Source: Candidatus Magasanikiibacteriota bacterium (GTDB taxonomy: Bacteria; Patescibacteriota; Patescibacteriia; Magasanikbacterales; GWA2-37-8). Taken from it: a DNA stretch of 64,000 bases. A program made the translations under genes and the position numbers. The notes below the pieces were generated by a model. It had not been told where the DNA came from. It saw only the letters and a list, made by a program, of their open reading frames with translations, and searched no databases. Numbering within the stretch: position 1 is the first letter of the stretch; each line of letters opens with the position of its first letter. The DNA lies in the NCBI GenBank assembly GCA_963840935.1, contig CAWJAS010000001.1, forward strand, positions 448,875 to 512,874. The letters run 5' to 3'. This document shows, piece after piece, positions 4,010 through 63,655 of this stretch.

Positions 4010-4065
4010 TTTTTCCTTGTTTTTTTATAGTATAAAAACAGTTTCGCCAACAAAAGGAGGGTGAC

Positions 4066-4203
4066 GTGTATATGAACATACTGAGGGCGAAAAGCACGCC
4101 GAAGCAGGAATGTTTGTCATTGTTCTTTTTGGCTGTTATCGTCACAGCTGGAATTGTCGCCACAGTTATTGATTTTATCTATGGCGAGCATGACGAGCGA
4201 TAG
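4066..4203 (+). CDS. Small hydrophobic peptide (about 43-45 aa) with strong SD (AAAAGGAGGGTGA); GC-rich; followed by a terminator-like hairpin at about 4234-4260
   Basis: SD plus GTG/ATG start and a single TM-like segment (LSLFFLAVIVTAGIVATVIDFIY). Absent from the ORF track because it is under 60 aa. Confidence 0.3.
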   Translation: MYMNILRAKSTPKQECLSLFFLAVIVTAGIVATVIDFIYGEHDER

Positions 4204-4272
4204 GAGTTGTCGCGAAAATTCGATGTTTATAAAGCGGTTTTTAGAGCCGCTTTTCTTATATAAAAAAACGCC

Positions 4273-4325
4273 TTGACACTGTGGACAAATATGATATATT
4301 ATCACTCACAGGGTTAGAGTGATAA
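4273..4325 (+). promoter_or_regulatory. hrcA promoter (TTGACA 4273-4278, TATATT about 4295-4300) overlapping a CIRCE-like operator TTATCACTC-N9-GAGTGATAA (4299-4325)
   Basis: Perfect 9-bp inverted repeat with a 9-bp spacer, one symmetric change from the canonical CIRCE TTAGCACTC-N9-GAGTGCTAA. It sits at the -10/+1 of the hrcA-grpE-dnaK operon. Confidence 0.75.
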
Positions 4326-4333
4326 TAATATAT

Positions 4334-5041
4334 ATGAAAAACGCTATTTTACCCACAGAAGGCAGGCAACTCAAATTAATAATATCAGTCATAGAAAATT
4401 ACATTGAAACAGCAGAGCCGGTTGGTTCCAAGTTTTTGGCTTACAAAAAAAATATTGGCTGGAGCGAAGCCACGATACGCAATGATTTTCGCGTTTTGGA
4501 AGAGGCCGGTTTATTGGTTCAGCCACACACTTCAGCCGGTAGAATTCCGACTATGGCCGGTTATCGTTTTTACGTCGATAGAATTGGCGCGGAAACAATT
4601 AGTAAGAAGGAGCAAAATAGTTTGGAAAAAGCTTTCAAAGAATCAGACTCATACGAAATCGCTTGCAAATCATTGGCGAAGGAGGCGGCATCAATCACTC
4701 GTGAAGCGGTTATCGTGGCTTTCACAGTTGATAAAATTTTTTATACGGGACTTTCCAATATATTTGAAAAACCGGAATTTGCTTCATCGAACATGGTAAT
4801 AAATACGTCGCGAATGTTTGATCAATGTGAAGAATGTTTGGATCGTTTTTTTGGTAAAGTGGGGCAAGAGCCGGCAATTTTTATCGGGCCGGAGCATCCG
4901 TTTGGCGCGCATCTTAGTGTGATTGGAGTTGGTTTTGGCAAAGAAAATGAAGGATTATTTATGGTTTTTGGGCCAATGCGCATGAATTACAAGAAAAATT
5001 TGGCTTTAGTTCAAAAAGTAAAAGAAATATTTAATCAGTAA
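4334..5041 (+). CDS. hrcA: Heat-inducible transcription repressor HrcA (short form, about 235 aa)
   Basis: N-terminal winged-helix (LKLIISVIENYIETAEPVGSKFL) typical of HrcA. Operon context with grpE-dnaK-dnaJ and a CIRCE-like operator. Confidence 0.8.
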   Translation: MKNAILPTEGRQLKLIISVIENYIETAEPVGSKFLAYKKNIGWSEATIRNDFRVLEEAGLLVQPHTSAGRIPTMAGYRFYVDRIGAETISKKEQNSLEKAFKESDSYEIACKSLAKEAASITREAVIVAFTVDKIFYTGLSNIFEKPEFASSNMVINTSRMFDQCEECLDRFFGKVGQEPAIFIGPEHPFGAHLSVIGVGFGKENEGLFMVFGPMRMNYKKNLALVQKVKEIFNQ

Positions 5042-5043
5042 TT

Positions 5044-5589
5044 ATGTTTGGAAAAAATAAAATAATCAACGACGACGTCACTGACGCATTGGTTAGGGAT
5101 GATACAGCGCCGGCGGAAGAAACGGCAGAATCGGTTGGTTGTGAAAACTGCGCTCGATTGAATGAAGAAATGGAAAAATTTAAAATTGGCTGGCAACGCG
5201 CTTTGGCGGATTACCAAAATTTGCAAAAAGAAACTGTCGCTCGACGCGTTGAATGGGCACGAATGAGTGAACAGCAAATTATTGAGGAATTTATTCCGGT
5301 ATATGAGAATTTAAAAATGTCGCTTGATAGCTCGAATTGCGAGAACGAAAATAATCCATGGCTTAATGGCGTAAAACTTGTTTTGAAACAATTCGCGGAT
5401 ATTTTGAAGTCTCACGACGTGGAAGAAATACAAGCGGTAGGTAAAAAGTTTGACCCAAAATTTCATGAAGCCATTGGTGAAGAAAAAGTGGAAAAGAAAA
5501 AATCAGGAGAGATAATAAAAGTAATTAACGGCGGATATATTATGGGTGACAAAGTGATAAAAGCGGCAAAAGTAATTGTCGCAAAATAA
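5044..5589 (+). CDS. grpE: Nucleotide exchange factor GrpE
   Basis: GrpE coiled-coil and C-terminal beta domain similarity. Position between hrcA and dnaK. Confidence 0.9.
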   Translation: MFGKNKIINDDVTDALVRDDTAPAEETAESVGCENCARLNEEMEKFKIGWQRALADYQNLQKETVARRVEWARMSEQQIIEEFIPVYENLKMSLDSSNCENENNPWLNGVKLVLKQFADILKSHDVEEIQAVGKKFDPKFHEAIGEEKVEKKKSGEIIKVINGGYIMGDKVIKAAKVIVAK

Positions 5590-5661
5590 ATAAATCAGGA
5601 CTTATAAATATTAATTTTTCTGCCTTACACTGAGCAGTGTTTGGTAGAAGGAGGTTTAAAT

Positions 5662-6105
5662 ATGAGTATTATTCGTTGGTCTCCAATGCTAGACCCGTTT
5701 TCTGAGATGGAGGAAGCGTTTAATCGTTTGCCTTCATTTGGTGGTGGACAATCACTGAAAGCTTTTGTGCCTGCAATGGATGTTTATGAAACCGATAAAG
5801 CAGTGGTGGTGGAAGCTCCGCTTGCCGGTGTAAACCCGGATGAAGTGAAGGTTAGCGTGGAAAAAGGTGTTTTAACGATTCAGGGCGAATCAAAAAAAGA
5901 ACACGAAGTGGAAGAAAAAAATTATTACAGAAAGGAAGTCCGTTCAGGCGCCTTTTATCGCCAAGTTGCTCTACCGGCTCCGGTTATGGAAGATAAAGTG
6001 TCGGCTGAATTCGAAGATGGTATGTTAAGAATTACATGTCCCAAATCCTCGCCGGCAAAGGCAAAAACAGTAGATGTCAAAGTAATTAAGAAAAATAAAA
6101 AATAA
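5662..6105 (+). CDS. Small heat-shock protein, Hsp20/alpha-crystallin family
   Basis: Alpha-crystallin domain (AMDVYETDKAVVVEAPLAGVNPDEVKVSVEKGVLTIQGE...). SD GAAGGAGG upstream of the start. Confidence 0.88.
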   Translation: MSIIRWSPMLDPFSEMEEAFNRLPSFGGGQSLKAFVPAMDVYETDKAVVVEAPLAGVNPDEVKVSVEKGVLTIQGESKKEHEVEEKNYYRKEVRSGAFYRQVALPAPVMEDKVSAEFEDGMLRITCPKSSPAKAKTVDVKVIKKNKK

Positions 6106-6183
6106 TTTTTACCGTAGAACCGCGAATAGTCCGTTCGCGGTTATATCGGAAAAATAATTAATAATTTAAATAATTTTAGACTT

Positions 6184-8100
6184 ATGTCAAAAGTATTGGG
6201 AATTGATTTGGGCACAACAAACTCCTGCATGGCTATCATTGAAGGTGGCCAGCCAAAGGTGTTGGAAAACAAAGAGGGGGCGCGCACGACGCCGTCAATC
6301 GTGGCAATTTCTAAATCAGGCGAACGCTTGGTGGGGCAACTGGCTAAACGCCAAGCCGTGACCAATCCGGAAAACACATTGTATTCAATCAAGCGTTTGA
6401 TTGGACGTCGATGGGATGACCCGGAGGTTCAAAGAGATTTAAAGTTAATGCCATATAAAATTGTTCAATCGGGTGATGGTGTAAAAATCACAATGAGTGG
6501 GAAAGATTATTCACCCCAGGAAGTATCGGCCATGATTCTTGGCAAAATGAAGGCAGACGCCGAAGAAAGATTGGGTGAAAAAATTAGCGACGCTGTTATT
6601 ACCGTGCCGGCGTATTTTGATGATTCTCAACGTAAGGCGACAAAGGACGCCGGAGAAATTGCCGGTTTAAATGTTCTGCGCGTAATTAACGAACCGACCG
6701 CAGCCGCTTTAGCGTATGGTTTTGACAAAAAAACAAATGAGCAGATTGTGGTTTATGATTTGGGCGGTGGTACATTTGATGTTTCAATTTTGGATGTGGC
6801 ACCGGATAATGTTCAGGTTCTTTCAACTAACGGAGACACACATTTGGGCGGAGATGATTTTGACCAGGTAATTATAAGCTGGATTATTGATGAGTTTAAA
6901 AAAGACCAAGGAATTGATTTGGGAAGCGACCCGCTGGCTCTCCAACGTATTAAAGAAGCGGCCGAGAAGGCAAAAATTGAATTATCAACAGCGCAGGAAT
7001 CCGAAATAAATCAGCCATTTATCACATCTGATTCCAGTGGTCCGAAGCACTTGGTATTAAAATTATCCAGGTCAAAATTGGAAGAATTAGTTGGTGATTT
7101 GGTTGAGAAGACTTTGGGGCCGGTTCAAAAAGCTTTGGATGACGCAAAATTAAAATCAACTGATATTGAAGAAGTAATCTTGGTGGGCGGAATGACCAGA
7201 ATGCCATTAGTAATCAAAACGGTAGAAAAGTTTTTTGGAAAGAAACCGAATGTTACTGTTAATCCCGATGAGGTTGTGGCTATTGGCGCATCCGTTCAAG
7301 GTGGCGTGCTTAAAGGAGAAGTAAAAGATATTTTGTTATTGGATGTTACACCTTTGTCTTTGGGTTTGGAAACGCTTGGCGGTGTAATGACAAAATTAAT
7401 TGAAAGAAATACGACTATCCCAACTTCAAAAACTCAGGTTTTTTCCACAGCGGCGGATAATCAACCGAGCGTAGAGGTTCATGTTTTGCAGGGAGAACGC
7501 CCGATGGCAACAGATAATAAAACCCTCGGCAGATTTATGCTTGACGGAATTCCGCCGGCTCCGCGCGGAGTGCCTCAGGTTGAAGTGACTTTTGATATTG
7601 ACGCAAACGGAATTTTGAACGTGAAAGCGAAGGATAAAGCGACAAATAAGGAACAATCAATTCGTATTGAAGCCTCATCCGGTTTGTCAAAAGAAGAAGT
7701 GGAAAAAATGAAACAAGAAGCCGAAGCCCATGCGGATGAAGATAAAAAGAAGCAGGAAATAATCGAGGCAAAAAATATTGCCGACACGATGATTTATACC
7801 ACGGAAAAAATGATGAAAGATGTGGAAGAAAAAAAGATTGAAATAAGTGATGAAGAAAAGAAAGCTGTTGATGAAGCACTTGCTAAATTAAAAGATGTAA
7901 AAGATAAGGACGATGTTGAGATTATCAAAAAAAATTCCGAGGAATTATCAAAAGTGGCGCAAGCTGTTGGGATGAAAATGTATCAAGCCGAGCAGAATAA
8001 TAAAGCAAGCGAAGCTAAAACAGAAGACGCTGGTGAAGCAAAAAGCGAACCGGGAACTGCTACTGACCAAGGACCGATTGAAGGTGAAGTGGTTAAATAA
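6184..8100 (+). CDS. dnaK: Molecular chaperone DnaK (Hsp70)
   Basis: [18 protein letters not shown] and the other Hsp70 signatures across the full length. Confidence 0.98.
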
Positions 8101-8103
8101 TTT

Positions 8104-9210
8104 ATGTCCAAAGATTATTATAAATTATTAGGCGTGGAAAAGAACGCAACCGCTGATGAAATTAAAAAGGCGTTCAAAAAAATGGCCATGCAATATCACC
8201 CGGATAGGCCGACAGGCGATGAAAAAAAGTTTAAAGAAATCAATGAAGCTTTTCAAGTGCTTGGTGACGCGGAAAAGCGAGCTAAATATGATCAATTTGG
8301 CGCTGATTTTGATACGCAGGGAGGTTTTGGTGGTGGTATGAATTGGGAAGATTTTATGCGAGCGGCACGGGGGCAAGGTGGCGCGTCAGGTAATATTAAT
8401 TTTGGCGGTATTGATTTGGGAGATATTTTTGGTGATATTTTTGGATTCTCGTCTCATGAAGATGTGAGAGGGGGGCGAAGACAAGCCAGAGGACGAGATA
8501 TTGAAATTGATGTCGAAATAGATTTTAAAGAAGCGGCGTTTGGAATTCAAAAAGATTTTTCCTTGCGAAAACAAGCAAAATGCGAAGTTTGCAAAGGAAG
8601 TGGAAATGAACCGGGAAGCAAGGTGGATACATGCCGGACTTGCCAAGGGCGCGGTCAGGTGACGCAACAGCAAAGAACATTTTTAGGAATAATGCAAACA
8701 GTTGTTTCTTGCCCGGACTGCAAAGGACGAGGCCAGAAGGCGACAAATAAATGCAAACACTGTGGCGGAGATGGAATATTGGCAAAAACAGCTAATATTA
8801 ATGTTAAAATTCCCGGTGGAATTGACGACGGACAATCGATTAGAATAACCGGACATGGTGAAGCTGCGCCCAACGACGGGCAATCTGGAGATTTGTATGT
8901 TCGAGTCCATGTTAAAGCTCAAAAAATATTTCACCGCGAAGGTTTTGATGTTTATACTGAATCGGAGATTAGTTATCCGCAAGCCGTTTTGGGAGACAAA
9001 ATAATTGTGCCGACTTTGGACGGCGAATTAAAAGTCATGGTGCCGGAAGGTACTGAGTCCGGCCAATTAATTCGTTTAAAAGGGCACGGAGTTCAATATT
9101 TGAGCCGTTCAGGCAGGGGAGACCATTATGTGAGAATAAAAATTCGTGTCCCAAAGAAAATTTCGCGTGAAATAAGAAAAAAATTAGAAGAGATAAAAAA
9201 TGATTTATAA
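8104..9210 (+). CDS. dnaJ: Molecular chaperone DnaJ
   Basis: J-domain with HPD. Gly-rich linker. Four CxxCxGxG zinc-finger repeats. Confidence 0.97.
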   Translation: MSKDYYKLLGVEKNATADEIKKAFKKMAMQYHPDRPTGDEKKFKEINEAFQVLGDAEKRAKYDQFGADFDTQGGFGGGMNWEDFMRAARGQGGASGNINFGGIDLGDIFGDIFGFSSHEDVRGGRRQARGRDIEIDVEIDFKEAAFGIQKDFSLRKQAKCEVCKGSGNEPGSKVDTCRTCQGRGQVTQQQRTFLGIMQTVVSCPDCKGRGQKATNKCKHCGGDGILAKTANINVKIPGGIDDGQSIRITGHGEAAPNDGQSGDLYVRVHVKAQKIFHREGFDVYTESEISYPQAVLGDKIIVPTLDGELKVMVPEGTESGQLIRLKGHGVQYLSRSGRGDHYVRIKIRVPKKISREIRKKLEEIKNDL

Positions 9211-9221
9211 GGTAGATGAAT

Positions 9222-9254
9222 AAAAAAACGCCGTGAATAACAGGCGTTTTTTTT
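9222..9254. terminator. Bidirectional rho-independent terminator (A-run, ACGCC-loop-GGCGT, T-run) between dnaJ (+) and rnhA (-)
   Basis: GC stem flanked by A-rich sequence 5' and T-rich sequence 3'. Confidence 0.7.
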
Positions 9255-9263
9255 AATATTTTT

Positions 9264-9662
9264 TTAATGATTATCCAGAATTTTATTTAATATTGCGTCC
9301 GCTTCTTTGTTGTTTTCTCTTAATGTATGACGATAAGTGATTTTTTTAAAAACTGAGGCGGAATTCCATGCTTGAATAAAAAGTTTTTGCAACGTCGGTT
9401 CTTTAACTTTATACTCACGATTCATTTGTTTTACCACTAATTCGGAATCCAACACACATTCAACTTCCGTGGCCTTTAGTTCCTTGGCTTTTTTTAGGCC
9501 GGCAATCAAGGCAGAATACTCGGCGTAATTATTTGTTTGTTCTCCAAGATATTCGCCAAATGCTTGTATTGTTTCACCGTTCGTATTTTTAATAATAACA
9601 CCGGTTGCCGCCGGTCCCGGGTTTCCGCGGGCTCCGCCATCAGAAAAAATAATTAGTTTCAT
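9264..9662 (-). CDS. rnhA: Ribonuclease HI
   Basis: SDGGARGNPGPA motif and catalytic DEDD arrangement of type-1 RNase H. Confidence 0.9.
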   Translation of the reverse strand: MKLIIFSDGGARGNPGPAATGVIIKNTNGETIQAFGEYLGEQTNNYAEYSALIAGLKKAKELKATEVECVLDSELVVKQMNREYKVKEPTLQKLFIQAWNSASVFKKITYRHTLRENNKEADAILNKILDNH

Positions 9663-48929: not shown

Positions 48930-48951
48930 CAACTTGAAAATAAGTTGTTAT

Positions 48952-49138
48952 TCGTCGGGGTGACAGGACTTGGTCTCGACTCTCGTCGGCTTCCGCCTCC
49001 TCGGTCTGACCACCGCCTCGCGGTCGCGCCTCCCAAATAGTCGGCGCGACATCGCTCCGGCGTTCAAGTCCAAAAGCGACGCAAACTATTGCGTCGCTTC
49101 ATCCCTCCTCACTTTGTTCGTCGGGGTGACAGGACTTG
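48952..49138 (-). repeat. tRNA-flank structured element, copy 1, with its flanking 21-nt direct repeats TCGTCGGGGTGACAGGACTTG (48952-48972 and 49118-49138), which duplicate the 3' end of tRNA-Pro(CGG)
   Basis: Direct repeats read from the sequence. The internal 56-nt block at 49010-49065 is identical to a block in copy 2. GC-rich stems are present (GTCGCGCC...GGCGCGAC). Confidence 0.6.
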
Positions 49139-49194
49139 AACCTGCGGCCTCGTCGTCCCGAACGACGCGCTCTAGCCAACTGAGCTACACCCCG
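49121..49194 (-). tRNA. tRNA-Pro (anticodon CGG)
   Basis: Manual cloverleaf fold: 7-bp acceptor, D-arm GCTC/GAGC, anticodon stem CGTCG/CGACG with loop UUCGGGA, and a T-arm. 74 nt, no encoded CCA. Confidence 0.85.
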
Positions 49195-49280
49195 AATTGA
49201 ATGAAATCAGTATAGTAAATATATGGTCTATTGTCAACTGCGAACAATATAAAAAAGTAATATTTTTAGTGATATATTTT

Positions 49281-49310
49281 TCAACACTTCACCCTAGGGT
49301 GAAGTGTTGA
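49281..49310. other. Perfect 30-bp palindrome TCAACACTTCACCC-TA-GGGTGAAGTGTTGA in an AT-rich spacer
   Basis: Read directly from the sequence. Confidence 0.6.
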
Positions 49311-49336
49311 ATTTTGCTAACCTGAGGCATCGTTCA

Positions 49337-49608
49337 TCGGGCTAGCGGGACTCGAACCCGCGGTCTCATTTTTCACATTCTCCAATTTGTCGGGCTAGCG
49401 GGACTCGGCTTCGGCTCAAATTTTCTTCCGAAAATTTGGCCTAGCCACCGCCTCGCGGTCGCGCCTCCCAAATAGTCGGCGCGACATCGCTCCGGCGTTC
49501 TCGTCCCGACGCGAGCAAAACTATTTGCTCGCTCTACGCCCCCTCACTTCGTTCGTCGGGCTAGCGGGACTCGAACCCGCGGTCTCATTTTTCACATTCT
49601 CCAATTTG
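49337..49608 (-). repeat. Tandem array: 53-nt unit (tRNA-Pro 3' half plus 20-nt trailer) at 49337-49389, structured element copy 2 at 49390-49555, second 53-nt unit at 49556-49608, immediately followed by intact tRNA-Pro(GGG)
   Basis: The 33-nt tRNA 3' halves (49337-49369 and 49556-49588) are identical to tRNA-Pro(GGG) residues 49609-49641. Element copy 2 begins with a degenerate T-arm in which GGCTTCGGCT replaces GAACCCGCGG. Confidence 0.6.
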
Positions 49609-49682
49609 TCGGGCTAGCGGGACTCGAACCCGCGGTCTCATGCACCCCATGCATGCGCGATAGCCAACTTCGCTATAGCCCG
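49609..49682 (-). tRNA. tRNA-Pro (anticodon GGG)
   Basis: Manual cloverleaf fold: acceptor CGGGCTA/TAGCCCG, anticodon stem CATGC/GCATG with loop AUGGGGU (G37), T-arm GCGGG/CCCGC. 74 nt. Confidence 0.85.
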
Positions 49683-49800
49683 ACAAATTGTCCAATGTGA
49701 AAACCTGGGTTTTTCGGTTTGCTTCGCAAACATCTAAAAACCCGTTCTCGCCGTCGCGAGTGAAACTGTTCACTCGCTCGCTTTAAGCGACGGCTCAAAC

Positions 49801-49838
49801 CCCCATGCATGCGCGATAGCCAACTTCGCTATAGCCCG
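49801..49838 (-). repeat. Duplicate of the 5' 38 nt of tRNA-Pro(GGG) (acceptor 5' strand through the anticodon loop), about 118 nt upstream of the intact gene on the tRNA strand
   Basis: 38/38 identity with 49645-49682. The spacer contains a long hairpin (GCCGTCGC...GCGACGGC) followed by a T-run. Confidence 0.6.
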
Positions 49839-50003
49839 TTTGAGTGAGAGTAAAAAGCAAGAAAACTTGCATATTACCGAGCGAGGGCGGGTTATATGAA
49901 ATATAGCTCGGTACATGTATATTTTGGGCAATTTTAGCACATGTTTATTTTCTTTTCAAGCTTTTGGTTTTATGCTATAATATAGCTCTAATTACTATAT
50001 AAT

Positions 50004-51039: not shown

Positions 51040-52476
51040 ATGATGAGCGTGGAAAAAATATTAAAAAAAATTTCTACTGTTTCCAAAAAAAATAAAATTC
51101 CCGTTTATATTGTCGGTGGGTTCGTCAGAGATTTGATGATGGGAGTCCCTCAAAAAAAAGACATAGATTTTGTGATTGAAGGTAGTGGTATAAAATTTGC
51201 CGAACTGTTTGATGAATCCATGAAAAAAGTAGGTAGTTTGATTAAATTTTCTGATTTTGATACGGCCAGATATATTATTGATGATAAAAAAGGGGATAGC
51301 TTGATTTTGGAGTTCGCGGGGGCAAGAAGCGAATCATACACAGCGGAATCTCGCAAGCCAAAGGTGGTTTCAGCAACTCTTCAAAGTGATTTATCCAGAC
51401 GTGATTTTCGAATTAACGCCATGGCAGTTCCAGTTGAAGTGTATTCGGGAATAAAAAAACCGACTTTAGTTGAAATCAAAAAAAAATTAATTGACCCTTT
51501 TGATGGAACACAAGACATAAAGAATAAGATTTTGGTGACGCCTCTTGATCCAGACCAGACATTTAGTGATGACCCACTGCGCATGTTGCGGGCTGTTCGT
51601 TTTGCCGCTCAATTGAATTTTGGTATTGATAAGAAAGTTTTGGAATCAATCCATAAAAATTGCAATCGTCTTAAAATTGTTTCAGCCGAAAGAATTCAAG
51701 AAGAATTATTCAAATTAATGTCTTGTGTCAGCCCGTCAGTAGGTTTAATTTTAATGTTTCAGACCGGTCTTTTGGATACTATTTTGCCTGAAGTGTCCGC
51801 GCTCGACGGGGTTGAAGAGGTTTATGGGCACCAGCATAAAAATAATTTATTTCACACATTCAAGGTTGTTGATAATATCGCGGAAAGGTCAGATAAAATT
51901 CTACTCCGGCTCGCCGGTTTATTTCATGACATTGGCAAAACATCAACAAAAAAATTTCTGCCTAAAATTGGATGGACTTTTTACCAGCATGAACACGTCG
52001 GCCGAAAAATGGTATCTCAAATAGCCAAACGCCTGCATTTGTCGAATGATGACGCCGATTATTTGCGCAAATTAGTCAGATGGCACCAACAGCCGATTTC
52101 ACTCATGGACGAGGGGATTACCGATTCGGCCGTAAGGCGAATAATTGTAAATTTGGGTGATGAACTTGATGATTTGCTTATTTTGGGTCGTTCAGATATT
52201 ACCACCGGCAATCCATCAAAAAAATCAATTCGTTTAAAAAATTACGATAAATTGGAAAAACGCATTGCGGAGGTTCTTGAGAAAGATAAACTTCGCGCTT
52301 TTCAATCACCGGTCAGAGGCGATGAAATAATGAAGGTTTGCGGGTTGAATGCCGGCCCGATCGTTGGTAAAATAAAAAAAGAAATAGAAGAAGCGATTCT
52401 TGACGGAATTATTCCAAATGAGTATCAACCGGCCTATGATTATATGGTCAAAATAAAAAATAAATATTTAAAATAA
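51040..52476 (+). CDS. cca: CCA-adding tRNA nucleotidyltransferase / poly(A) polymerase with HD domain
   Basis: Pol-beta head (GGFVRDLMMG...DIDF). HD motif (HDIGK). Confidence 0.85.
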   Translation: MMSVEKILKKISTVSKKNKIPVYIVGGFVRDLMMGVPQKKDIDFVIEGSGIKFAELFDESMKKVGSLIKFSDFDTARYIIDDKKGDSLILEFAGARSESYTAESRKPKVVSATLQSDLSRRDFRINAMAVPVEVYSGIKKPTLVEIKKKLIDPFDGTQDIKNKILVTPLDPDQTFSDDPLRMLRAVRFAAQLNFGIDKKVLESIHKNCNRLKIVSAERIQEELFKLMSCVSPSVGLILMFQTGLLDTILPEVSALDGVEEVYGHQHKNNLFHTFKVVDNIAERSDKILLRLAGLFHDIGKTSTKKFLPKIGWTFYQHEHVGRKMVSQIAKRLHLSNDDADYLRKLVRWHQQPISLMDEGITDSAVRRIIVNLGDELDDLLILGRSDITTGNPSKKSIRLKNYDKLEKRIAEVLEKDKLRAFQSPVRGDEIMKVCGLNAGPIVGKIKKEIEEAILDGIIPNEYQPAYDYMVKIKNKYLK

Positions 52477-63358: not shown

Positions 63359-63582
63359 TGACCCGGTCCCGAAGGGATCCCTTTGGGACTGGGATTCGGC
63401 TTCGGCTAAAATTTTCTTCCGAAAATTTTGCCTAGCCACCTTCGCCAGTTGGCGAATCGCGGTTTGGCTCGCCCGCAAGCTCGCCAAACATCGCTCCGGC
63501 GTTCTCATCCCAACGCGAGCAAAGCAGTTTGCTCGCTTCCGGGTCAAACAAAAAATCCCTTTACAGGGATGTATTTGTTTTG

Positions 63583-63590
<8 letters not shown>
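63350..63590 (-). repeat. tRNA-flank structured element, copy 3 (interior 63367-63573), bounded by 17-nt direct repeats TTTGTTTTGTGACCCGG (63350-63366 and 63574-63590) derived from the 3' end of tRNA-Lys
   Basis: Shares the AAATTTTC-TTCC-GAAAATTT hairpin and the CATCGCTCCGGCGTTCTC...GCGAGCAAA...TTTGCTCGC module with copy 2, with compensatory changes. Confidence 0.6.

Positions 63591-63655
<65 letters not shown>

Follow-up and report, generated by a model that had tools for sequence, protein, structure and literature searches.

Folded single strands of DNA can serve as recombination sites, as in the attC sites of integrons and the attP site of the CTX phage. For IS608, Barabas et al. reportedly described in 2008 how four-nucleotide guides at the 5' foot of each hairpin pair with the cleavage sites, and blocks of identity reaching from the T-loop to the 3' end of transfer RNA (tRNA) genes are said, after Williams in 2002, to be typical of integrase attachment (att) sites. 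Partial tRNA copies are already known as integration scars (10.1101/2022.07.05.498093), and members of the IS91 family target GTTC or CTTG without target duplication, carry subterminal palindromes, form single-stranded DNA circles, make do with about 170 bp of their ends and frequently over-run an end (10.1101/2025.01.24.634351). Here we describe X, an element found in a 64,000-nucleotide (nt) stretch of a Candidatus Magasanikiibacteriota genome (assembly GCA_963840935.1, contig CAWJAS010000001.1, forward-strand positions 448,875 to 512,874; hereafter the window), where fragments of a proline tRNA gene, tRNA-Pro(GGG), are piled up around the intact copy. We lean slightly towards reading this pile-up as a strain-variable hotspot, built through nested insertion, duplication and loss by a family of mobile X elements of about 150 nt that lack an open reading frame (ORF) and occupy tRNA 3' ends.

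All RNA features of the locus lie on the minus strand, and tRNA positions follow standard numbering, the tRNA-Pro(GGG) gene having one extra D-loop base. X (49407-49555) is a G+C-rich sequence of 149 nt without an ORF, lying between two copies of a 53-nt unit, and has a counterpart, X' (48972-49120), at the neighbouring tRNA-Pro(CGG) gene; each begins directly after a tRNA 3' end. Both fall within the copies of a 202-nt repeat (76% identical) found once after tRNA-Pro(CGG) and once between the 53-nt units. The parts of X are, in order, a leader (CGAACGAAGUGAGG), a segment P1', hairpin H1, a segment P2' followed by GAAC, a conserved stem P3 with hairpin H2, and hairpin H3. A core of 52 nt is identical in X (49445-49496) and X' (49010-49061), the cores lying 435 nt apart, and the two elements differ in H1, in the segments matched to the tRNA and in the type of H3, a mosaic that suggests gene conversion or module exchange between copies.

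The folding energies of X and X' are -87.1 and -82.9 kcal/mol (z scores of -7.0 and -6.6 versus shuffles), and the antisense strand of X reaches only -76.6 kcal/mol. With 11 copies aligned to the structural model, 96.3% of cells were paired and compensatory changes occurred in 25 of 45 pairs; none of 500 shuffles attained the observed values, and slid controls gave about 37%. Covariation supports P3/H2 and H3, which form subterminal hairpins at both ends on one strand, and 12 G-U cells point to the tRNA-sense strand as the one that folds. The fold also stands under DNA parameters, and its conserved features include a GNRA loop and tandem-GA internal loops. No family in Rfam 15 (gathering threshold and E <= 10) matched X or X', including group I and II introns, omega-RNA/HEARO, tmRNA and Y RNA. 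A peptide encoded in X was considered and rejected, its short ORFs not being conserved, as were an Alu-like or signal recognition particle-like H2 and a twister-like leader, whose sequences are not conserved across the family and have no Rfam match.

An X locus has a general order of tRNA, leader or terminator, X, an exact copy of tRNA positions 57-73 (or 74), and native flank. Seven of nine copies of X end in RRCC or GGGC (AGCC, GACC, GGCC and GGGC were seen) and are followed by an exact tRNA copy starting at position 57, immediately 3' of the T-loop GTTC. That copy is 17-18 nt long in six of the seven; at the third window copy of X (63398-63545), which follows tRNA-Lys(TTT) (63583-63655) and a terminator-like hairpin, it consists of 9 exact nt and then a 22-nt insert. 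T-loop GTTC precedes every copy examined, and the last base of X adjoins position 57 (junction 56/57). The 17 nt after X and after X' each equal positions 57-73 of their own tRNA, and the two tRNAs differ there at five positions. These 17 nt are exact even at unpaired or mismatched positions, which points to duplication of DNA and not to selection for pairing; the copy has the character of an attR-type remnant of insertion at the tRNA 3' end.

Two variable slots flank H1. One holds P1', which complements the acceptor 3' strand (positions 66-72) of the adjoining tRNA; P2' and the invariant GAAC together complement positions 53-65, extending 4 bp beyond the reach of the downstream copy. GAAC stands directly 5' of P3, is complementary to GTTC, and pairs with the GUUC of the real tRNA, not with that of the copy. 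A covarying 4-bp stem of GGYY and RRCC ends exactly at the 3' junction of X. Pairing with positions 53-73 of the own tRNA versus the best other tRNA amounts to -29.8 versus -18.6 kcal/mol for the lysine copy, -33.8 versus -20.7 for a serine copy and -25.7 versus -15.8 for an arginine copy, a margin of 10-13 kcal/mol; the proline copies match each other's tRNA, as expected. In the lysine copy, P1' (GACCCGG) and P2' (UGGGAU) both match tRNA-Lys; despite the G-U pairs of the tRNA, P1' complements the 3' strand by Watson-Crick pairing and does not duplicate the tRNA 5' strand (GGCCUGG). The 22-nt hairpin in the downstream tRNA copy gives this X a cloverleaf-like four-way junction. Because the leader, H1, core and H3 are common across tRNA types, we regard X as one scaffold with tRNA-specific inserts. 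A separate origin of each X from a duplicated tRNA was rejected on two grounds, the conservation of leader, H1 and core from one tRNA type to another and a P1' that complements the 3' strand instead of repeating the 5' strand.

The family as known to us comprises about 13 copies. A gapped pattern made from conserved X motifs and run on Joint Genome Institute metagenomes matched copies behind tRNA-Pro(CGG) (locus L013), tRNA-Pro(GGG) (L014 and L019), tRNA-Ser(GCT) (L015) and tRNA-Arg(TCT) (L020), together with a tandem array (L017) and a copy with no tRNA call (L018). The lysine copy of the window, copies in the syntenic loci L025 and L021, and degenerate copies behind tRNA-Val and tRNA-Arg(GCG) were then added with a covariance model, R1. 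All three tRNA genes of the window are followed by an X. The array in L017 (1-300), at a contig end, has X and then the tRNA 3'-end copy twice in succession, followed by a third X that has a different P2' and an extra small hairpin, and a short T-loop fragment, GGTTCGAG, lies just upstream of X in both L021 and L018. Searching genome contigs with the 20-nt H2 core returned one chance match only (Bifidobacterium), the pattern being over-specific, and scans of viral contigs gave nothing, or chance matches that failed under the covariance model. The literature searched described no element of this kind, and to go by the sequence collections X is apparently undescribed, being absent from Rfam 15 and from the phage and plasmid collections.

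Loci for comparison were fetched via homologues of PilT, whose gene adjoins the locus, and of MtaB. To judge by the PilT homologues, the bacterium belongs to the Patescibacteria (CPR), close to Magasanikbacteria. Searched for identical entries, the proteins of the window returned none. Loci L003-L006 (PilT 100%) carry a plain tRNA-Pro(GGG) where the window has a 5' fragment of that gene, with X directly after it, and their contigs end inside the X core, a repeat. Locus L007 (PilT 95%) shares with the window, apart from a few single-nucleotide polymorphisms (SNPs), the 5' fragment, a spacer (L1), an inverted 20-mer, the tRNA, the 20-mer and a 3' fragment, followed by a variant of X; since L007 is an independent metagenome assembly, the shared part of the array is not an assembly artefact. 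The second copy of a 78-nt repeat that spans fragment and flank was found in the window only. At tRNA-Pro(CGG) in L007 the site of X' is cleanly empty, with native flank and terminator directly after the gene. In L008 (PilT 83%) tRNA-Pro(GGG) is followed by native flank and terminator, with no pile-up. Behind tRNA-Pro(CGG), L025 has a full X between repeats of about 72 nt, which run from position 57 through the terminator into the first 15 nt of X, and L023 and L024 retain only a remnant at that site. L021 has a 5-kb island between tRNA-Pro(CGG) and X with its right-hand tRNA copy. X stands behind none of nine tRNAs in L035 and L036, versus three of three in the window. Patchiness, tandem arrays and remnants amount to the behaviour of a mobile or selfish sequence, unlike that of a fixed RNA gene. 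The variation of the pieces among L003, L007, L008 and the window agrees with the recombination hotspot that had been proposed for this locus before relatives were compared.

Other insertions and nuclease genes were also seen at these loci. At the 3' end of tRNA-Lys, L035 (9141-9580) has an insert of about 420 nt with an 84-amino-acid ORF and flanking 12-nt repeats composed of the last 6 tRNA nt and 6 flank nt, and L036 (9474-9640) has a tandem duplication of about 125 nt that starts from the acceptor 3' strand at a GCCGG microhomology. Small GIY-YIG nuclease ORFs occur in L008 (2729-3073, minus strand) and L035 (48-308, minus strand), the former adjoining a tRNA gene at the place of the window's X'. 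The L021 island (4038-9399) encodes McrB_N-HNH, HNH_repeat-HNH and Schlafen/AlbA_2 proteins as well as unknown proteins, with no recognisable integrase.

The original prediction had seen in the window a pile-up of tRNA-Pro(GGG) fragments with trailers, and its repeats are real: every one of them was recovered in place, far above chance expectation. ARAGORN and Rfam called three tRNAs in the window, Pro(GGG), Pro(CGG) and Lys(TTT), and none of the fragments, so that there is indeed a single intact tRNA-Pro(GGG) (49609-49682; no encoded CCA; RF00005 at 62.9 bits, above the gathering threshold; anticodon GGG). Read in tRNA sense, the locus begins with a promoter-like site (TTGAAA-17-TAAAAT, with TG; 49931-49959) and continues with the 5' fragment (49801-49838), which is the predicted 38-nt duplicate and an exact copy of positions 1-37, the 97-nt spacer L1 (49704-49800), an inverted 20-mer (49684-49703), the intact tRNA, the 20-mer (49589-49608) and a 33-nt fragment of positions 41-73 (fragment C, 49556-49588). 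There follow X, the 17-nt copy of positions 57-73 adjoining the last base of X (49390-49406), a second 20-mer (49370-49389), a second fragment of positions 41-73 (fragment E, 49337-49369), UGAACGA (49330-49336), which equals the first 7 nt of the X leader and may be a remnant of it, a further 18 nt, and a perfect 16+16 terminator-like palindrome (49280-49311) homologous to the terminator after the tRNA flank in L008. Positions 38-40 occur in no fragment. In the relatives the intact gene starts where the 5' fragment stands, just downstream of the promoter.

The 78-nt direct repeat (49330-49407 and 49549-49626) is 77/78 identical at a spacing of 219, and the 53-nt unit of the original prediction, present twice as claimed, is part of it. 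The order of that unit has to be recast, however: its supposed 20-nt trailer is the native 3' flank of the gene, because L008 has tRNA-Pro(GGG), then CAAATTGGAGAATGT and then the terminator, the first 15 nt of the 20-mer being the native flank there, and in tRNA sense the 20-mer comes after the tRNA 3' end and before the 33-nt fragment. What had been taken for a degenerate 3' half (49390-49406) is the exact 17-nt copy, adjoining an X that had gone unrecognised. Two exact 20-mers and one inverted with 3 mismatches (17/20) compare with an average of 0.09 matches in shuffles, and the inverted trailer predicted beside the tRNA is confirmed; 28-nt inverted arms around the intact tRNA are 89% complementary, and 49684-49703 with 49589-49608 would lengthen the acceptor stem to about 25 bp (-56.7 kcal/mol, z -6.9). 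L1 contains an X-like 5' module (an X-like leader, a hairpin at 49756-49777 and then GAGAAC, its two slot segments pairing together) and a second hairpin (49707-49743), and matches the X covariance model weakly (49718-49791, E 0.01). Two hairpins and a T5 run are thus present where a terminator or attenuator had been suggested, but a terminator scan found none there on the minus strand.

Beyond the array, tRNA-Pro(CGG) (49121-49194) has its own promoter-like site (TTGACA-17-TATACT, 49209-49237), and X' is followed by a copy of positions 57-73 plus CGAA (48951-48971), then native flank and terminator. The copy of tRNA-Lys positions 57-73 spans 63359-63397, its 22-nt hairpin lying at 63367-63388. 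Some 50 nt upstream of the gene position there is a palindrome, GGGCTATA-TTTCA-TATAGCCC, which combines nt 2-9 of tRNA-Pro(GGG) with their complement. The window's version (49889-49909) is degenerate and that of L003 (about 215-235) perfect, and in L008 (3800-3830) the palindrome is duplicated along with the promoter region and the first 9 tRNA nt. None of the three tRNA genes of the window encodes CCA, and two genes away from their cluster at Pro is a gene for a CCA-adding enzyme (51040-52476, plus strand) that has a PolyA_pol head together with an RNA-binding and an HD domain.

The array would be accounted for by a 219-nt unit consisting of tRNA positions 41-73, X, positions 57-73 and 20 nt of native flank (33+149+17+20), present about 2.2 times from position 41 of the intact gene onwards. 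The first unit would lack X and the 17-nt copy, as precise loss of X would leave it, the second would be complete, and the third would end 7 nt into X. Equivalently, X would stand between 78-nt repeats, an arrangement comparable to that of L025. A separate event would have given rise to the 5' fragment, L1 and inverted 20-mer, which are common to L007 and absent from L003.

As for movement, X may be a non-autonomous element that is moved as folded single-stranded DNA by a trans-acting HUH-type enzyme. It would insert 3' of the T-loop GTTC and bring its own copy of positions 57-73, by which the tRNA would stay intact; the left-hand positions 57-73 would then be part of the element and the right-hand copy the displaced original. 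We note that counting the left-hand positions to X, and not as a target duplication, is an interpretation. X could also leave precisely, and the X-free junction would read GGTTC/GAGTCC...CCCGA/CAAATTGG. The features behind this proposal (the strand-specific fold, GTTC junction, invariant GAAC, covarying 4-bp stem at the opposite junction, exact copy, empty sites, long flanking repeats, tandem units and the three copies found behind terminators) are together probably best accommodated, by analogy with known transposons, by a folded single-stranded DNA element with an HUH-type enzyme acting in trans, a mechanism that we infer. Priming of reverse transcription by tRNA was rejected, the copy continuing into genomic flank and not into CCA.

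The nearest parallels are the IS200/IS605 elements and the ORF-less palindrome-associated transposable elements (PATEs), which like X have a strand-specific fold with a subterminal hairpin near each end; on the interpretation just given, X would also share with them insertion 3' of a fixed tetranucleotide without true target duplication, and precise excision. Counterparts of their 4-nt guides would be GAAC with GTTC and GGYY with RRCC, the latter in the stem at the 3' junction, acting as guide and cleavage-site pairs as in HUH transposons. Unlike these elements, X comes with no TnpA in the scanned ORFs and has no sequence similarity to them, and about 75 nt (including the copy of tRNA 57-73 and the two matched segments) separate its putative cleavage site from its putative guide, versus about 15-19 nt in IS608. 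IS91 elements (IS801, IS1294) share with X a GTTC target next to one end, subterminal palindromes (a pair at one end, a single one at the opposite end) and, on the same interpretation, the lack of target duplication; their single-stranded circles and minimal ends of about 170 bp offer a further parallel, and end over-run carrying flanking DNA would explain the long flanking repeats and tandem units of X. On the other hand, no Y2 transposase was found in the scanned ORFs, and to our knowledge IS91 elements do not carry target-matched segments or restore a tRNA. In a parallel with attC and CTX attP, the copy of positions 57-72 pairs, in the folded state, with P1' and P2' to form a duplex with target tRNA sequence, including bulges; unlike those sites X targets a tRNA gene and not attI or dif.

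A more far-reaching and distinctly tentative idea, which we rate as possible but on the doubtful side, is that X is a new class of miniature, protein-less insertion element guided by base pairing and programmed for one tRNA. Its conserved scaffold of about 150 nt would carry two exchangeable segments that pair with positions 53-72 of the chosen tRNA gene, across the T-loop insertion point, and a spare copy of the last 17 nt by which the host gene survives, and it would be served by a trans enzyme or perhaps by the nucleic acid itself.

Several points weigh against a hotspot built by mobile X elements. Pfam scans detected no transposase, integrase or reverse transcriptase in 28 ORFs of the window or in those near X copies, the search covering the 64-kb window and fetched loci, of a genome of about 770 kb. 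A domain summary of 70 ORFs likewise held no such enzyme among the 25 commonest families listed, nor was there a recombinase domain in flanking ORFs or the L021 island, a Y1 HUH transposase (TnpA) domain in the scanned ORFs of window and fetched loci, or an IS110 DEDD/serine recombinase, TnpB or IscB gene near the X copies scanned. (The sole name resembling reverse transcriptase in the scans belongs to a 132-amino-acid RNase H-type protein, Pfam RVT_3 and RNase_H, encoded at 9264-9662 on the minus strand of the window, which is not a reverse transcriptase.) X shows no sequence similarity to any Rfam family, phage or plasmid, and BLASTN of X' versus phages and plasmids returned nothing. X ends in RRCC, and not in the GTTC/CTCG of IS91 ends; the P1 helix of the proline copies has a central mismatch or bulge; and the simple allele of L003 is drawn from k-mer-based contigs. 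How the matched segments are re-set for a new tRNA is not accounted for by the model, and neither are the inverted 20-mer or the junctions that follow position 37, precede position 41 and fall at flank +20. Lastly, most X copies lie between a tRNA and a terminator, inside tRNA transcription units, and X may have a role at the level of RNA.

An explanation closer to the original prediction, which spoke of serial site-specific integration and excision, would have kilobase-sized elements with tyrosine integrases integrating in tRNA-Pro(GGG) and later being deleted, X being the att-proximal end. We judge this unlikely, even though tRNA-targeting integrative elements (genomic islands, cis-mobilizable elements or CIMEs) resemble X in duplicating the tRNA 3' part at the far end, restoring the tRNA, leaving empty sites in relatives and accreting in tandem. 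Direct repeats of tRNA 3' parts are indeed present, fragments of this kind are known integration scars (10.1101/2022.07.05.498093), and the L021 island sits just where such an element would, between tRNA-Pro(CGG) and X with its tRNA copy. Yet no integrase was found in the islands or flanks scanned, and the size of about 150 nt and the covarying fold, kept in 11 copies with compensatory changes, are unlike deletion remnants. Moreover, behind all four tRNA types the repeat has one and the same starting point in the T-loop, unlike in integrative elements, the attP side lacks symmetric core sites beside the copy, and arm sites would not be expected to include matched segments inside the element. 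Of the scars that had been predicted, an attR-type 17-nt remnant survives, with neither integrase nor kilobase-sized element to go with them, and the alternation of attL and attR does not, the junctions after 37, before 41 and at flank +20 being unlike att crossovers.

We give no better chance to the idea that X with its 17-nt copy is a tRNA-like non-coding RNA, in which P1 and P2 mimic a minihelix that is co-transcribed and co-evolves with the tRNA, the pile-up being local duplication. The sense strand is the one that folds, with its G-U pairs; P1 and P2 would stack as an acceptor stem on a T stem, much as tmRNA and the YrlA Y RNA combine an acceptor-like helix on a T-stem-like helix with a large insertion; and the lysine hairpin with its cloverleaf-like junction, the GNRA loop and tandem-GA loops, and the location of most copies ahead of a terminator are all congenial to it. 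Set against this are the patchiness of X in close relatives (three of three window tRNAs, none of nine in L035 and L036), the empty sites, tandem arrays and remnants, the exactness of the 17-nt copy even where it is unpaired or mismatched, and a GAAC that pairs with the GUUC of the real tRNA and not of the copy. Three copies lie behind terminators, which argues that X need not be transcribed. Unlike tRNA-like RNAs, X has no T-loop or Rfam match, is multi-copy and patchy, and changes its helix sequence with the neighbouring tRNA.

More improbable still is an RNA-guided element, of the IS110 bridge-RNA, TnpB omega-RNA or intron type, whose RNA would pair with the tRNA gene across the 56/57 junction and direct a recombinase or nuclease, or splice itself. 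A contiguous guide of P2' and GAAC does span the insertion point, extended by P1', and specificity covaries with the tRNA; X also recalls the bridge (seek) RNA of IS110/IS1111 in joining a structured scaffold to short programmable segments that covary with the target. The 17-nt copy has the length and position of a TnpB guide, with GTTC at the place of the target-adjacent motif (TAM). A guide equal to positions 57-73 would, however, also hit the occupied tRNA gene itself, and we rejected a TnpB-type guide on this ground. There is no IS110, TnpB or IscB gene near the copies, and no recombinase gene in cis; no intron or omega-RNA of Rfam matches; some copies lie behind terminators; and bridge RNAs recognise a half-site on each of the two strands, with a repeat of just 2 nt left behind, whereas X reads one strand across the site and has a repeat of 17-18 nt. 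An assembly artefact, to which the window-only second 78-nt copy and the breaking of related strains' contigs at repeats might point, or a split or permuted tRNA gene, is hardly credible, given that the independent L007 assembly has most of the array with few SNPs, that the halves lack positions 38-40, that an intact gene is present and that the flanks are not complementary as joining would need.

Returning to X as a mobile family, tRNA genes are classic landing pads for mobile DNA, and integrase proteins have until now been credited with recognising them. In the present case a gene-less element of 150 nt occupies one T-loop position behind at least four tRNA types, and every copy includes sequence that complements its own tRNA. 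Fragments of tRNA genes that mislead annotation and interrupt assemblies are explained by this finding, and a covariance model is now at hand for mapping the family. Should targeting rest on this complementarity, X would amount to a small insertion module that is re-targetable by nature, and to a new cause of instability at tRNA loci in the small Patescibacteria genomes.

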